Part shown: positions 54,179 through 60,080 of the stretch, one piece after another | Position numbering within the stretch: the first letter of the stretch is position 1 | Layout of the letters: every line of letters starts with the position of its first letter | Assembly (NCBI GenBank): GCA_002441005.1 | Contig: DJWO01000014.1 | Coordinates: 88,662 to 152,661 of the forward strand | Length of the DNA: 64,000 nucleotides | Direction: 5' to 3' | Origin: Candidatus Aminicenantes bacterium UBA6228 | GTDB lineage: Bacteria; Acidobacteriota; Aminicenantia; Aminicenantales; Saccharicenantaceae | Notes under the pieces: generated by a model | Told to the model about the DNA's origin: nothing | What the model saw: only the letters and a program-made list of their open reading frames with translations | Database searches by the model: none | Translations under genes and position numbers: made by a program

Positions 54179-54766
54179 TTAAGGTTCAATTTTAGTGCCC
54201 AGCACTTCCAGGAACTTCCGCATCCATTCCGGATGTCCTGGCCAGGCGGCAGCGGTTACCAGGTTGCCATCAACATAAGCGTTGGACAGGCTGTCGTTTA
54301 GCTCTCCCCATTTAGCTCCGGCTCTGATCACATCTGGTTTTAAGGCCGGATAAGCAGTGCAAAGTTTGCCCTTAAGGACATCAGCCGCTACCAACACCTG
54401 CGGACCATGACAGATGGCTGCAATAGGTTTTTTGTTCTCAGCGAAGTACTGGACAATAGAAATTACTTTTTCATTCAAACGGATATATTCCGGGGCCCGG
54501 CCACCAGGGATGACCAGAGCATCATAGTTTTTGGGCTCAACTTCATCAAAGGTCGCAGTCAGGGCAAAATTATGGCCTGGTTTTTCACTATAGGTTTGAT
54601 CACCGACAAAATCGTGAATAGCTGTTTTGACCGTCTCACCTTTTTTCTTGCCAGGACAGACCGCATCAACCTGATGGCCAACCATGGTCAGCATCTGGAA
54701 AGGAACCATGGCCTCATAATCCTCGACATAGTCTCCAACCAGCATTAAAATCTTTTTTGCACTCAT
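54179..54766 (-). CDS. PfpI/DJ-1 family (YhbO-like) protein
   Basis: [30 protein letters not shown]; start MSAKK at 54766 with AGGAGG RBS. Confidence 0.9.
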
Positions 54767-55173
54767 TTTTAACCTCCTTATTGTAGCTATTTTTAGATTA
54801 TCAATTTTAGCTGAATCAGGCAACAGCCATCTTCCCAACAGACATGACCCAAATTGAGATTAAGGCGTTATAATTTTAAGAACTGCAAATGAAAGGAATC
54901 TAAGAACTTACAAAAATAAAGCTGGAGTTGTCGGCACCTGGCTTCAATGGGTCAGAGTTAGTCGGGGAAAAAGTTAGAGCCATGATTGCCAGGAAGTTTT
55001 TCAGAAAAGCAGGACGCTTGAATTGCTTCAGTTTTTGGCGCTGGCTCTAAGAAAATTTTAATGGTGGTGTCTACTGGACGATGTCAGAACTTTCTTCCAA
55101 CAAAATCCTGACGCTGACTGACGCAAAATTGCGAAGCATTTTTGCACTGCTATCTAAATTCCTAAAATTTATG

Positions 55174-55267
55174 AGTATAACGTTTCCAGCATATACGACG
55201 TTTTGCGATAGCAAAATGTCCCGAATGGCAAGGGCGTAAGCCCGTAGCATATATGCTGTGTTATGTG
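55174..55267 (-). other. attC site (cassette 2)
   Basis: Minus strand CACATAAC-A-CAGCATATA ... TATATGCTG-GAAAC-GTTATACT; 94-bp imperfect palindrome 17 bp after a stop codon. Confidence 0.85.
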
Positions 55268-55284
55268 ATGTCTGCGTGCCAATT

Positions 55285-55890
55285 TCAACTTTTTCTAAAT
55301 AAGTCAAGTGATGGTTCAATTAACTTCTTGCGGATAGTTTCACTATTATTAATTTCAAACAAATTATTCTCTACTAATTCTCCCTGAATTTTTATATATG
55401 CGTCCTCATAATCAATTTTTTCTATATTTTTGAAAATCTTATCGTCATTATATTCAAGATGACCCGTTACATTTTCAAATTTGCCAACCCATTTAACTTG
55501 AGGTTTCTTATGAATGTTATATAATACCCCTGCATAGACTTTCGGTTCATTAATATTTTTATCCCTAAGTATTATCCTTAAATATAAGATTTTTAAATTA
55601 TCGTCTATCTCTGTTATAGTTTGACCACGTTCGACCCTGGTTTTGTCCTTAGGAACAAAAAATACAGCGAATTTTCTCAACAGCCACAAATTGACATTAG
55701 TTGACTCTAATCCTGTTGAACTTCTTGCACTTATACCATAACCAGCAGGTCTTCCAATAATGAATTTCTCCTCTTCTTCATGCAAGATACCTTCTATTTC
55801 TTTAATCAAATAGGAAACCTCAAGATACAATTTTTGAATAAAATCAAACGCTAAATTTGTCTGCTCGATAATTTCACTTTTGTTAATCAT
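55285..55890 (-). CDS. Hypothetical cassette protein (201 aa)
   Basis: Start MINKSE at 55890 (GGAG RBS), overlapping the upstream stop by 8 nt; AT-rich codons; no motif recognised. Confidence 0.75.
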   Translation of the reverse strand: MINKSEIIEQTNLAFDFIQKLYLEVSYLIKEIEGILHEEEEKFIIGRPAGYGISARSSTGLESTNVNLWLLRKFAVFFVPKDKTRVERGQTITEIDDNLKILYLRIILRDKNINEPKVYAGVLYNIHKKPQVKWVGKFENVTGHLEYNDDKIFKNIEKIDYEDAYIKIQGELVENNLFEINNSETIRKKLIEPSLDLFRKS

Positions 55891-56722
55891 GGCTCCAGTC
55901 CTCCTTATAAAATATGGGGGGGTCAATATACTTTAACTTCCCTAATTGCAGCAGAGGCATAAATATCTTTTTCTGATTGGTAAGGAAGATTGTTTTCTTC
56001 ACCGGCGTGATCTTTTTTTCAAATAACAGACTTTGCATAAAACCGATAAAGGCGCCACGAAATTTAGCTGTTCTTATCTCAAAGAAAATGGAGACATAGC
56101 TTTTTAGAGAAGCGCTTACGTTATAGAGGTAATTGAGACCTTGAAAATCCCGAAGATTTTTCTTATCCAATAAGTTATATAGATCCAAAGCAAAATCTCG
56201 CTGTTGCTTTTTCATGTTTCTATTACTTTCTAGGACATTATAGAGAAACGAGGAAACTGATTGCCAATTAGTCCATTTAAAACGATGGATAAACTCTGGC
56301 GAGATTATTTTAAATTTATGTTCTTTATAATAATAGTCAGCAGTAATTGCGATTAACCAAAAATCCTTACCATAGTTCTTTGCCTCTAATTTTCCGCCAT
56401 GGATTTCACGTAGTAGTTGGGCTTTGGTTTTTTTAGTCTCCTCGGCGAATCCTGAAAAATATTTAGCTTCTATCAGTAGATAGTAATTCCCAACTATTAT
56501 GACTAAATCTGGTTCAGTATTTTCCTCAAAACGAGGCCAAAATATAAATTCTGCCTCATTAGCTTCCTAGTTAGAGATGTCAAAGCCCAATTTGTTCAAA
56601 TATCCTTTAAGAAAAATTTCTCGGTCTGAATATTTGAAAAAGGAAAAGACATTGGATGTCAGAATATCTTCCATTCTTTCAATTCTAGAAGTCAATTTGC
56701 CATGTAATTCAGCTAAGTACAT
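55883..56722 (-). pseudogene. PD-(D/E)XK nuclease-like cassette gene interrupted by an in-frame TAG at codon 52
   Basis: Single 280-codon frame MYLAELHGKL..EDILTSNVF..SN*EANEAEF..TEPDLVI..LLIEAKY..WTNWQ; TAG at 56567-56569. Confidence 0.8.
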
Positions 56723-56753
56723 TTTATCACCTTTGTGCTATGCACGCAGATTT

Positions 56754-56844
56754 CACATAACGTTCTCAGCATAAAAGAAGTTTTTGCGAAGCAAAAATTT
56801 GGGTGAGTGCCATAAAACACGAACCTTTTATGCTGTGTTATCTG
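56754..56844 (-). other. attC site (cassette 1)
   Basis: Minus strand CAGATAAC-A-CAGCATAAAAG ... CTTTTATGCTG-AGAAC-GTTATGTG; 91 bp, 16 bp after a stop codon; same architecture as the other attC. Confidence 0.85.
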
Positions 56845-56860
56845 TCTGTTTGTCGCCATA

Positions 56861-58216
56861 TTAATCTTTCCTTGGTCTTGCCCAATTGCAATATCTATGA
56901 GTTAGCCTAGCATTTTCAGGTATAGTTTTACCACCAGCCCAATATTGCTTGATATGATCAATTGCTGCATCATCTATATCTTGAATTTTCTGACCGCAAA
57001 TCGCACAGGTAGAATCATTTTTATAAAGTTCTTCCTTTAACTTCAAAGAAAAACAACGAGGTTCTTTTTTTGCAATACCAATTATGTCTTGAAGAGTTAG
57101 TCGCCACTTATCAAATCGTTTTGTTACTGCTTCAACACTACTTGTGGAGAGTTCAATTGCATCTATAAAATCCTGATCATTGGTCATTAGATATATTAAG
57201 GCTTCACGAATTGAATCAAGGTTTTGATAAACTTTGTTTTTGTCTTCTCTCGCAAAAGAATACATCAGAATGTCATATAAAGATGCATTGAATTTTTTTG
57301 GTTCCCAATATCCGTTTCGATTCTTTTCATCACCTTTATAAAATCTCTTAAATGCGTGATTGTCTAACAAGGATTTTATTATAGTAACCGCATTTTTAAA
57401 GGCGTTTTTTAATTCAATGGCGTCCACTTCAGATATATCTTGATATTTCTCCATATCATTGTTAAGAAACTTCCTCATAGGTGGTTTATATTTCAAATAG
57501 GTAAAATGATAAAATGCTGCAAATCTAAGAACAAGTTCTATATCTTTCATCCTCTTGTCAGGCTTTTTAAGTCCTAATAAGTACATAAAATCGGTATCTT
57601 TAGAAAGTTCTTTTAGTAATTTGTTGTATAGTCCCCTGTAGATGCAATTCCTTAATTCTTGATCGTTTAAAGATACTGCCCCTGTATTTAGTCGTTCAAA
57701 TATTTCAAATTTTAAATCAGCCTCTGACTCTCTCCGAAAAGTTATAGTGCGGATCTTACAATATCTTATTTTGTTTTGTAGCTTTCTATCTATCTCTTTA
57801 AACGATTTTCTGTTAAGTTCTGTAAATACTTTCAACCCGGTCAACTTAAAATCTATTCCGTCTGGAAATCGTCCATCTATAAATGAGAAAAAAGCGGTTA
57901 ATCTTTGTTGTCCATCAATGACATATTCTTTTCCATCTTTCTCTTCAGAGAGATAAATTACAGGGAGTGGTATATCCAAAAGTGCTGATTCTATTAGTCT
58001 GCTCGATTTTTTTGCATCCCATACAAAGTGTCTTTGGAAATCAGGCTGTATTATTAGATCTCCATCTTTATATTTCCTATAAAGTGAGTCTATCTCGGGA
58101 TCTCCCTGCTCTGTGTATACTCTTCTCTTTGTTGAAGAGACTTCTATATTCTCAATTTCTTCTTCTAATGGTTGCTCAAATTCGAGTTCGTTTAATTCTT
58201 CTGCTTCTTCATTCAT
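56861..58216 (-). CDS. DUF262 (GmrS/ParB-like) plus C-terminal HNH endonuclease protein
   Basis: IQPDFQRHFVW, VIDGQQRLT, IFERLNTG; CAICGQ..IDHIK..GGKT..NARLTHRYCN; GGAGG RBS. Confidence 0.88.
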   Translation of the reverse strand: MNEEAEELNELEFEQPLEEEIENIEVSSTKRRVYTEQGDPEIDSLYRKYKDGDLIIQPDFQRHFVWDAKKSSRLIESALLDIPLPVIYLSEEKDGKEYVIDGQQRLTAFFSFIDGRFPDGIDFKLTGLKVFTELNRKSFKEIDRKLQNKIRYCKIRTITFRRESEADLKFEIFERLNTGAVSLNDQELRNCIYRGLYNKLLKELSKDTDFMYLLGLKKPDKRMKDIELVLRFAAFYHFTYLKYKPPMRKFLNNDMEKYQDISEVDAIELKNAFKNAVTIIKSLLDNHAFKRFYKGDEKNRNGYWEPKKFNASLYDILMYSFAREDKNKVYQNLDSIREALIYLMTNDQDFIDAIELSTSSVEAVTKRFDKWRLTLQDIIGIAKKEPRCFSLKLKEELYKNDSTCAICGQKIQDIDDAAIDHIKQYWAGGKTIPENARLTHRYCNWARPRKD

Positions 58217-58243
58217 TCTATCACCTCCTTAGGCGACAAATTT

Positions 58244-58303
58244 CATATAACTCGTTTCTATACGAATTGAATGTATATGACCTTTTGGTGCATATTATAC
58301 GAA
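58244..58303 (-). other. attI-like site
   Basis: Minus-strand core GTTATATG (58251-58244) ahead of the first cassette, with no attC palindrome; TATACGAA direct repeats at 58259 and 58296. Confidence 0.6.
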
Positions 58304-58376
58304 CTTAATGTGTAATTATTAATCAAATTACTAATAATAACTTAAATACTTTTTTTTTACCAATTTTTATAGAATT

Positions 58377-58960
58377 ATGCAACAAAAATACTTGGAACAA
58401 ACAAAGCAAGAATTAAGATTAAGAATTTATAGTTTTAAAACTATAAAGGCTTATTTGGGCTGTCTGAGAGAATATTTTGATTTTAAAAAATTTAATTTGG
58501 AAAAAATAGACGAGGAAAATATAAAGCAATTTTTGTTAAATAAACAAAGTAGAAATTATTCTTCACAAACGATAAATCTTTACTTAAATACAATAAATTT
58601 TTCTACCGCGAAGTATTGAAAATTTCTCAAAATATAAATTTAAAATTCGCCAAGCGAAGTAAAAAACTACCGATTGTTCTATCAAGAGAAGAAATTAAAA
58701 ATATCATTGAGGCAATTAGAAATCCAAAACATAAATTGATAATTTCTTTGGCCTACGGCGCCGGATTAAGAATTAGCGAAGTTGTTAATTTAAAAGTAAA
58801 AGACGTTAATTTAGGAGAATTAACTATCCACCTTAAAAACGCTAAAGGCAAAAAGGACAGAATCACTATTTTCCCAGAAAAAATTAAAAATGATCTTCAA
58901 AACTTAATTGCTGGCAAAAACTTAAACGACTATCTTTATGAAAGCGAGCGAGGCGGCTAA
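58377..58960 (+). pseudogene. intI: Integron-type tyrosine integrase, frameshifted and 3'-truncated
   Basis: SAM-like N-terminus (YSFKTIKAY, SSQTINLYLN); frameshift near 58594-58602 (one added base restores FFYREVLK); KKLPIVLSREE, YGAGLRISE, KGKKDR; ends at ESERGG* before the HxxR and Tyr boxes. Confidence 0.85.
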
Positions 58961-58967
58961 TTCAATA

Positions 58968-59043
58968 TGGTGGAGCTGACCGGGCTCGAACCGGCGACCC
59001 CGTGACTGCCAGTCACGTACTCTCCCAACTGAGCTACAGCCCC
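58968..59043 (-). tRNA. tRNA-Ala(GGC)
   Basis: GGGGCTG/CAGCTCC acceptor stem, CGTGA-CTGGCAG-TCACG anticodon arm, TTCGAGC T-loop, encoded CCA. Confidence 0.96.
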
Positions 59044-59085: not shown

Positions 59086-59259
59086 GAAAAACAGGGGACA
59101 CAATCTATATTTCCTATTTTTTCTGGACTTTTCTTTGAAGAAAATCACTCTGGTCCTCAAAGAACCGGGTCGTCTTTTCCTGAAAGCTCAACTCCATAAT
59201 GTCAAAAACAAGATAAAAACAGAATGGAATCTTAAATAAAAAAGGCAAGTAACATAAAC

Positions 59260-59727
59260 TTATTCAGAAACTTTTAGTTCTTCTGCCTTCTTGAAGTCCG
59301 TTGTTTCATTCCCTATTCTTTTTAAACAGACAAGACGTACATTTCCTTCTTTATCCTGGATAAAGATAAATATAAAATTTTCTGATATCGACAAACCCCA
59401 AGCCTCCAGATTTATCCGGGCGAGTGTTTTGCCCTTTCTGTTAATGAGCCAATATTTCGTTTTTTCTCCGGGCTTTGATGGACTGGCAATCAGGAGATTA
59501 CCCTCGGGCGTCAAAGAAATTCCCTCTATATTCGGTTTTTTATCATAATCAGTTTTCCATTAAAATCATAAACTTTTAAATTTCTGCTTAACCCGTCAGA
59601 AAAAACGATTGAGTACACCTTCACCTTCTTTTGCACCCAGGAAAAAGTGATCTTCTCCTGCGTTAAGATATAACACCAGACAAAAAACAAAAAATGAGCT
59701 CAGCCAAAAAATCTTTTTCCCCATCAT
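59260..59727 (-). pseudogene. Degraded exported (beta-propeller-like) protein gene
   Basis: Signal peptide MMGKKIFWLSSFFVFCLVLYLNA, early stop, then out-of-frame blocks (LKVYDFNGKLI; YWLINRKGKTLARI) ending at 59260. 5' coordinate approximate. Confidence 0.5.
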
Positions 59728-60080
59728 TTTAGTTTCACCCCTATTTTATATATTGCTTTTTCTGGCTATGGCCAACTTTTTGTTGCTACTTCTTTCTAAC
59801 GGGCCATGATCCCCGACATAATTTGACCACCTTTATTGCTTGATATCAACTCAACGAATTAACTCATCTAAAATCTACTCGAAATTATTTTGCCTGCCAA
59901 TTTGTCTCATAATATAAATATTTAACTTGACAAAAAAACCACCAGAAATAAGATATATTTTCTTAAGATTTTTGATTCCAATGAACAATCTGATTGAAGT
60001 GTTCGATGCGAAACCCAGAAAATAAATGACCTGTTTGTTTTTGTCTATAAAATCTCACACCCTCTCAAGGAAGGAGGCCC

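Follow-up and report, generated by a model that had tools for sequence, protein, structure and literature searches.

The window analysed here is a stretch of 64,000 nucleotides from Candidatus Aminicenantes bacterium UBA6228 (contig DJWO01000014.1, positions 88,662 to 152,661), and our subject is a low-GC (guanine plus cytosine) island within it that holds the remnant of an integrase gene, an attI-like region and two gene cassettes, each closed by a palindromic, attC-like site. The integrase pseudogene (58377..58960, plus strand) is divergent from the cassette genes, and before the first of these lies the attI-like region (58251..58376, minus strand), with its crossover G↓TTA (the arrow marks the point of exchange) at 58251/58250. 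Cassette 1 (56761..58250, minus strand, 1,490 bp) contains an intact gene with DUF262 (GmrSD_N) and HNH domains (58216..56861, 451 aa), and cassette 2 (55181..56760, minus strand, 1,580 bp) contains two open reading frames (ORFs), ORF B (56722..55883) and ORF A (55893..55285). A preliminary description had taken the locus for a hidden integron, and the parts it named, i.e. an integrase divergent from a co-oriented array, an attI-like core and two palindrome-ended cassettes, are all present, and exchange is at G↓TTA. In kind this reading holds, layout, attI-like site and cassette exchange being integron-like; strict family membership fails on two counts: homologues of the integrase are without the I2 domain, and the geometry of the sites is not that of canonical attC.

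Cassettes and their insertion point

The intergenic region before cassette 1 ends in ...TTCGTATAGAAACGA↓GTTATATG, with a GTTAT core at 58251-58247 on the minus strand, and contains two direct repeats of the form TATACGAAyTkAATGTrTA (58259-58277 and 58296-58314). When the upstream regions of 21 loci are aligned, ~125 nt are conserved from the integrase start codon to ...AGAAACGAG↓TTA, both direct repeats included; beyond G↓TTA conservation is lost abruptly and each of the 21 loci has its own cassette. This conservation cliff delimits an attI-like site whose crossover is that of the cassette sites. A contig from an aquatic metagenome (run X16, depth ~670x) shares the attI region and the integrase start (window 58246-58404) and diverges exactly at 58246, which we read as the same attI carrying another first cassette in an organism that is abundant. 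A promoter-like TTAATA-17-TATAAT (58322..58294) points toward the cassettes; the promoter scan that found it is weak evidence, and gave no overall enrichment.

Cassette 2 opens with 20 nt (GTTATGTGAAATCTGCGTGC) whose inverse complement recurs, in 18 of 20 positions, in the 20 nt up to and including the R'' box of that cassette's site; in cassette 1, correspondingly, GTTATATGAAATTTGTCGCC stands at the start and GGCGACAAA...ATAAC at the end. Such a match is expected if a cassette goes through a circular form closed at its site. The same signature is seen in the family of related sites described below: an inverse complement (at least 17/22) of the 22 nt before R'' occurs within 4 kb upstream in 23 of ~100 sites, versus 2 of ~100 in a downstream control. 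A long ORF is co-oriented with the site in 22 of 23 delimited cassettes. Cassette 1 itself recurs at 76.5% identity (window 56825-58251) in two unrelated metagenome-assembled genomes (MAGs), one of Bacillota (L069) and one of Bacteroidales (L070). There it is preceded by another family site, in the window by attI, and the similarity breaks off precisely at G↓TTAT at one boundary and within the site at the other. Since these homologous DUF262 cassettes carry different site subtypes (type A in the window, a shortened type B in L069 and L070), the interior of a site appears to be swappable while R''/L'' stay unchanged. The cassettes are discrete units that are exchanged at G↓TTA, that is, at the G↓TT of the R' core, as integron cassettes are.

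The protein of cassette 1 matches Pfam GmrSD_N (PF03235, 2.6e-30) and HNH (PF01844, 5e-7), as well as PADLOC NsnA across nearly the whole model (2.3e-94) and PD-T4-2_A. It has, in other words, GmrSD_N together with a nuclease domain, the domain set of a GmrSD/DUF262-HNH defence nuclease, and by sequence match it resembles the type IV restriction-like defence proteins of this kind (NsnA, PD-T4-2). The gene is intact, is probably functional, and may still serve as a restriction-type defence. In the window an in-frame TAG (56569-56567) interrupts the 279 codons of ORF B, and L004 and L005 have the ORF whole (279 aa); ORF B matches the candidate-defence model PADLOC PDC-M15A at 2.4e-11 and has a PD...(E)xK-like, i.e. 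PD-(D/E)XK-like, motif read by eye, with no match in Pfam, NCBIfam or PDB. ORF A (202 aa) had no match in Pfam, NCBIfam, PADLOC or PDB, and an exact-protein look-up found no record of it. The suggestion that both cassettes hold nuclease-type genes is therefore borne out by hidden Markov models (HMMs) for cassette 1, and for cassette 2 comes down to the motif and the candidate-defence match. Elsewhere in the family, the ten largest cassette ORFs gave six DNA methyltransferases, one GmrSD, one GH5 cellulase and three without assignment. With these methyltransferases and the NsnA and GmrSD_N-HNH matches of cassette 1, the expectation of defence-type cargo held, and the idea that the cassettes form a defence reservoir seems reasonable.

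A half-site-like match, TATGCAAAGTCTGTTAT (2 mismatches), lies at 56023-56039 within ORF B; it has no palindromic partner and is probably due to chance.

A family of palindromic sites

Site 1, at the end of cassette 2 (type B; 55177..55264, minus strand, 88 nt), has its R'' box ATAAC at 55264-55260 and its R' box G↓TTAT at 55181-55177; site 2, at the end of cassette 1, is of type A (56757..56841, minus strand, 85 nt). They start 17-20 nt past minus-strand stop codons (that of ORF A at 55285, that of the DUF262-HNH gene at 56861), have the same orientation, and share the frame ATAAC-A-CAGCATA...TATGCTG-N5-GTTAT and a TTTTGC-loop-GCAAAA hairpin, just as the preliminary description had it; no further exact copies of the frame occur in the 64-kb window. 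The family HMM recovers sites 1 and 2 at E = 1e-20 and 5e-18, and the covariance model at 95 and 81 bits, both sites being among the 120 training sequences. The covariance model was used in place of a home-made stem descriptor, which at 9 pairs was too permissive in AT-rich DNA. Rfam 15 gave no match to the sites or to the end segment described below, a scan of the region and of L135 returning only tRNA and noise.

An exact-pattern scan of one genome per species, with an estimated ~8 chance matches, found at least 118 such stretches in bacterial and archaeal MAGs, at least 116 of them clear relatives. Among the matches listed, ~40 lie in archaeal MAGs (Methanophagales, Methanocellales, Thermoplasmata, Altiarchaeota, Nanoarchaeota and Hydrothermarchaeota) and the remainder in ~20 bacterial phyla, some on contigs of 0.1-3.9 Mb. 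The two sites first noticed are real, and belong to a large cross-domain family that had been missed.

A family site begins with the R'' box (yrTAAC) and a single unpaired base; a stem of 12-13 bp then leads to two hairpins joined by a conserved CACCCAaAT, as a three-way junction, and after these come the 3' strand of the stem, 3-5 unpaired bases and the R' box (G↓TTAyry), often with GAAAT after it. In many sites R'' and R' read GCCTAAC and GTTAGGC. The spacers are 1 nt versus 3-5 nt in 41 of the 59 integrase-adjacent sites, and the stem is mostly 12-13 bp, unbroken and without extrahelical bases. They depart in this from canonical attC sites, in which the geometry is R''-(5 nt)-L''...L'-(5-6 nt)-R' and extrahelical bases are present.

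The stem is upheld by covariation. In the integrase-adjacent sites, which are independent of the search pattern but whose alignment was fitted to the model and so favours pairing, 9 of 11 stem pairs show two-sided changes and 97.7% of cells are paired, the slid controls giving 25-38%; the covariation score is 0.52 versus 0.11 in shuffles, none of 500 being as high. With DNA parameters, the bottom strand (the one complementary to the coding strand) has the more stable fold, by 2.4-2.6 kcal/mol, in 114 of 120 and in 57 of 61 sites (171/181), which argues that the selected fold is not that of the mRNA. This bias agrees with the attC sites of integrons, whose recombining form is the folded bottom strand. 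No T-run follows the stem.

Two further observations concern the interior of the sites. A short variant of the family site (~60 nt, with a single hairpin) precedes the common DUF262 cassette at L069 5610-5684 and at the equivalent place in L070. Also, the variable-region hairpin of a canonical attC of Hydrothermarchaeota (PMC9668308 Data S9), GTTTTGCTGTCGCAAAAACGT, is nearly identical to hairpin b of site 1, CATTTTGCTATCGCAAAACGT (window 55190-55215), and a Hydrothermarchaeota MAG (L103) also has a family site; this likeness may connect both site families.

A recombinase without I2

The integrase remnant keeps the SAM_4 domain and the first half of the catalytic domain (Pfam SAM_4 and Phage_integrase matches) and ends after ...YESERGG. 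A -1 frameshift lies near 58596, and being truncated after ERGG (~codon 194) the remnant is without the catalytic HxxR, H and Y residues. The truncated fragment scores 133.9 bits with TIGR02249 (integron integrase) and 129.2 bits with NF040815 ('site-specific tyrosine recombinase/integron integrase', XerA type).

When metagenomes were scanned with the fragment aligned to two relatives, 80 integrase loci emerged, and in these the covariance model placed 64 sites. All but two of them (62) are on the strand opposite to the integrase and upstream of its start, a compartment that makes up only ~18% of the sequence searched. Among the things that the preliminary description named as speaking against its reading was that homologous integrases are never associated with cassettes; this is clearly not so, at least one site standing at 30 of the 37 loci that have an intact homologue and more than 1.5 kb of upstream DNA. 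The nearest site usually ends 0.5-1.5 kb from the integrase start codon, and the arrays have 1-4 sites. This fixed tie to cassette arrays argues for a dedicated role of the recombinase.

The window copy being truncated before the region concerned, the additional (I2) domain of IntI was judged on intact homologues, and they are without it. These homologues (74-91% identical to the fragment, ~271 aa, range 270-285 aa, mostly from Patescibacteria) carry the R, K, HxxR, H and Y residues, have ~27 residues between ...ERGG and HSLRHSFATHLL, and show ~15 residues in place of the 58 of IntI4. In PDB the highest-scoring structure is VchIntIA (2A3V, IntI4; 159.5 bits), matched in two stretches that skip its residues 183-240, which we take to include the I2 helix, and XerA (4A8E) aligns in one stretch with 147 bits. 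Similarly, a full-length relative (L063) passes NF040815 in one stretch (230.9 bits, cut-off 220) and falls short of TIGR02249 (236 bits in two stretches, cut-off 265). At E <= 1e-30 there are 1,477 matching database proteins, and nearly all complete entries among the best 120 are ~270 aa long. Named close homologues come from Patescibacteria, Parcubacteria, Pacebacteria and Roizmanbacteria, annotated as XerD, tyrosine recombinase or 'integron integrase', in agreement with the Patescibacteria link proposed at the outset. The missing docking helix I2 and the missing extrahelical bases of the sites go together.

A discrete insert at tRNA-Ala

The low-GC stretch sits between a DJ-1/PfpI gene (54179..54769, minus strand) and a tRNA-Ala(GGC) gene (58968..59043, minus strand), with a GC of 0.31-0.35 versus ~0.49 (0.46-0.54) in the surrounding DNA. 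Contigs from sludge and digester samples (runs X10 and X12), whose strain is ~97% identical to the window, join 55060 directly to 58967, skipping 3906 letters, with 7 letters (ATGGTGG) that fit both sides; read depth at this joint equals flank depth, and over the island it is ~0-3. From this joint and its overlap the insert is 55061..58966 (3,906 bp, no strand assigned), and it is flanked by the 7-bp direct repeat ATGGTGG at 55061-55067 and 58967-58973. The CCACCA at the 3' end of the tRNA lies inside the repeat, which makes the tRNA the insertion target. A 25-nt search for a copy of the tRNA 3' end had found none, the real repeat of 7 bp emerging from the empty-site contigs. The locus therefore has what a tRNA-targeting integrative element has: an insert at a tRNA 3' end, a flanking repeat, a recombinase at one end and relatives with an empty site. 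Low GC had already suggested foreign DNA, rightly, and sister strains have the site empty; the extent given then, 55174-58960, was too small, and both the insertion at the tRNA gene and the empty site had been missed. An exact-protein look-up found an identical DUF262 protein encoded on eight contigs from eight metagenomes, all with the same locus, the source habitats being oil-field and hydrocarbon sites, groundwater, sludge and digesters. All of this is best read as a strain-variable foreign insert.

At the left end lies a conserved segment, el85 (55061..55145, plus strand), the outer part of a segment that is internally deleted here. In related platforms, the last attC-like site is followed by GTTATAC..ATAAATTTTArGAATT... 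and then by a ~190-nt hairpin-rich stretch ending ...GTCCAGyAGACACCACCA, of which the window keeps the outer 85 nt. El85 folds into three hairpins and has 78-94% identical copies in 15 related loci, some beyond the last cassette, others inverted downstream of intact integrases; the ~190-nt segment was not called as tRNA or transfer-messenger RNA and matched no Rfam family. At the other end, the right-end arm CGAGGCGGCTAATTCAAT (58949..58966, plus strand) adjoins tRNA-Ala(GGC) in L204 and tRNA-Val(TAC) in L188, and in five metagenome contigs (L134, L135, L138, L140 and L148) it adjoins el85 near intact integrases (CGAGGCGrCTAATTCAAT-ATGGTGG-TGTCTG...). Right arm and left end joined in this way would have the look of an attP-like junction.

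The ~190-nt segment, ending ...GACACCACCA, was also seen to bracket intact platforms as an inverted repeat (L135 2240-2420 and 4195-4372; also L134, L138, L140 and L148), and may be an att site, a small RNA or a terminal repeat.

The truncation of the integrase corresponds to a ~305-bp deletion between CGAGGCGG, which encodes ERGG, and the similar CGAGGCGA before the right end, because L204 has an intact gene, then ...CGAGGCGACTAATTCAAT followed by ATGGTGG and another tRNA-Ala(GGC). An independent deletion in the same interval is found in L188, beside tRNA-Val(TAC). An imperfect 14-nt direct repeat, with CGAGGCGGAAAATT inside the integrase and CGAGGCGACTAATT before the right end (L204 285-299 and 590-610; L188 8620-8650; window 58949-58966), has mediated at least two independent truncations, each fusing the integrase to a tRNA. 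Other lesions differ from strain to strain: the -1 frameshift in the window (compared region 58306-58600), a 79-to-15-nt replacement over the start codon in L004 (1237-1252) and a 288-nt deletion in run X7. They have the appearance of neutral decay after a common C-terminal deletion. With its frameshift and without the catalytic C-terminus, the window copy is inactive, and nothing in the window is mobile any longer.

On the far side of tRNA-Ala lies a second strain-variable indel (59121-59875): 753 nt of low GC in which small, broken ORFs occur, one of them with a signal-peptide-like start; it is absent from related strains (L004 and a run X10 contig).

Discussion

We consider it likely that this region is the dead copy of a small, mobile, integron-like platform for gene capture, probably from a Patescibacteria-type donor. 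Canonical integrons, whether those of IntI1 and class 1, of VchIntIA, the sedentary chromosomal ones or the clusters of attC sites lacking integrases (CALINs), have much in common with it: a recombinase divergent from a co-oriented array, an attI with direct repeats and a G↓TT crossover, imperfect palindromes with R''...R', a cassette start that belongs with its own site as for a circular intermediate, a better-folding bottom strand, solitary clusters without integrase, and defence cargo. The platform differs from them in that its recombinase has no I2 domain and is ~271 aa long, not the ~320-340 aa of IntI; its sites have an asymmetric loop of 1 versus 3-5 nt in place of the unpaired 5/5-6-nt spacer, no extrahelical bases, and a three-way junction conserved in sequence (CACCCAaAT) where attC has a free variable region; its arrays are short (1-4 sites), and it is itself an insert that targets tRNA genes. 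Archaeal integrons (Ghaly et al., 2022, PMC9668308) are similar in that their cassettes are common to Archaea and Bacteria, are mostly without integrase, and occur in the same kinds of MAGs. Unlike the present family, they have IntIs with the additional domain and canonical attCs (PMC9668308 Data S9), nine archaeal attCs and attCaadA7 having unpaired spacers of ~5 and 6 nt and a bulged L box (PMC9668308). The CAGCATA/TATGCTG frame occurs in no attC listed in that supplement. With XerA, other Xer proteins and the simple 'Cand' tyrosine recombinases (PMC8138268), the recombinase shares its size, its domain set, the lack of I2 and, for a full-length relative, the match to NF040815, and the platform shares with Xer-type systems a short core at a conserved chromosomal site. 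Recombinases of candidate phyla have been filed as Xer-related, and Cand/Xer are treated as chromosome-dimer resolvases (Smyshlyaev et al., 2021, PMC8138268). Unlike these, the gene studied here has an attI of its own and is set, in a fixed divergent order, beside structured cassette sites, and no dif-like 28-bp site, for which no search was made, is involved. The system is apparently undescribed as an integron-like cassette system lacking I2; a search of the literature found no description of one, although absence there is no proof of novelty.

That this is simply an ordinary integron, whose integrase looks Xer-like merely through truncation and whose palindromes are standard attC, strikes us as very unlikely. 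The fragment does find TIGR02249 as its best NCBIfam model and IntI4 as its best PDB structure, the layout is canonical, and many family sites have GCCTAAC and GTTAGGC as R'' and R'. Truncation cannot account for the homologues, however, which are complete at ~271 aa, 74-91% identical, with ~15 residues against the 58 of IntI4, nor for the full-length relative that passes the XerA-type model and fails the integron one (236 < 265, in two stretches). The sites, for their part, have spacers of 1 versus 3-5 nt and an unbroken 12-13-bp stem without extrahelical bases, whereas canonical archaeal and bacterial attCs have spacers of ~5/6 nt. A system of modules of the Xer/dif type, such as IMEX elements (integrative mobile elements that exploit Xer) or pdif modules, would explain why a recombinase family without I2 passes the XerA model and is named XerD by the Joint Genome Institute (JGI), and why the platform uses a short core of double-strand type (CCACCAT) at tRNA ends; exchange would then take place on double-stranded cores at TAAC/GTTA, and the palindromes would be accessory, for instance terminators. 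We find this unlikely, in that R'' and R' are 80-120 bp apart in the duplex and must fold to give a normal two-arm core, stem covariation and the steady stability bias of the bottom strand point to a folded single strand, and the recombinase is dedicated, adjacent and in a fixed divergent layout, not a single housekeeping Xer.

A more radical alternative severs the palindromes from recombination altogether, making them repetitive extragenic palindromic (REP) or miniature inverted-repeat transposable element (MITE) like repeats, terminators or an RNA motif, and the island a small tRNA islet with an integrase. Their position right after stop codons is terminator-like, and most family copies have no integrase nearby. 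Yet the homology of common cassettes breaks exactly within the R boxes and the circle-junction signature is present; the 62 sites upstream of integrases are all on the opposite strand; and the better-folding strand is not the mRNA strand, no T-run follows the stem and Rfam has no match. We hold this alternative to be extremely improbable.

If the platform is integron-like, the recombinase of active copies would bind a site folded from the bottom (non-coding) strand, and circular cassettes would be inserted at attI and excised between two sites, as in integrons. Recombination would do without the I2 helix or extrahelical bases, the asymmetric bulge and/or the junction setting strand and polarity. 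Expression of the first cassettes probably starts from a promoter in the attI region, to go by the weak evidence of the promoter scan. It is probably this recombinase, too, that carried the entire platform to tRNA 3' ends, a step for which the only basis is that the element has no other recombinase. The platform may have originated in Patescibacteria; among the matches listed, just one genome-binned platform has both integrase and site, and it is in a Patescibacteria MAG (L099).

Several points weigh against this integron-like reading. Its support is wholly comparative, and it is from comparison that we infer recombination; the alignment of the family behind strand bias and covariation includes related sequences, and the second alignment is model-fitted. 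The window copy is inactive. The arrays are short, with 1-4 sites, and among the matches listed an integrase lies within ~4 kb at only 5 of the 117 genome loci with a family site. The attP-like junction of the five contigs is inverted relative to the integrase, which clashes with a simple circular intermediate, and L135 has the end segment on both sides as an inverted repeat, one form not being derivable from the other. Finally, the I2 helix is reported to be necessary for cassette recombination by IntI1 (PMC7790495), and a single-strand mechanism without it is for that reason unproven.

I2 has been described by Escudero et al. as an insert specific to IntI, found, like single-strand recombination, only in integron integrases, and its acquisition as the event that created integrons (PMC7790495). 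We see about an even chance that the platform represents an unrecognised integron-like lineage centred on Patescibacteria, with IntI-related recombinases without I2, distinct folded single-strand sites, tRNA-targeting platforms and mostly restriction-modification and defence cassettes spread across many bacterial and archaeal phyla of anoxic habitats, as either a stage before I2 or a parallel solution. For the genome of the window the consequence is more modest: a foreign insert that varies between strains and has one restriction-type gene, probably functional. If the wider reading is true, a natural integron-like system without I2 and extrahelical bases would make the question of the role of I2 directly testable. 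Tools keyed to the IntI domain would then be overlooking a route for gene exchange, largely of defence genes, that connects ultra-small Patescibacteria, ordinary bacteria and archaea.

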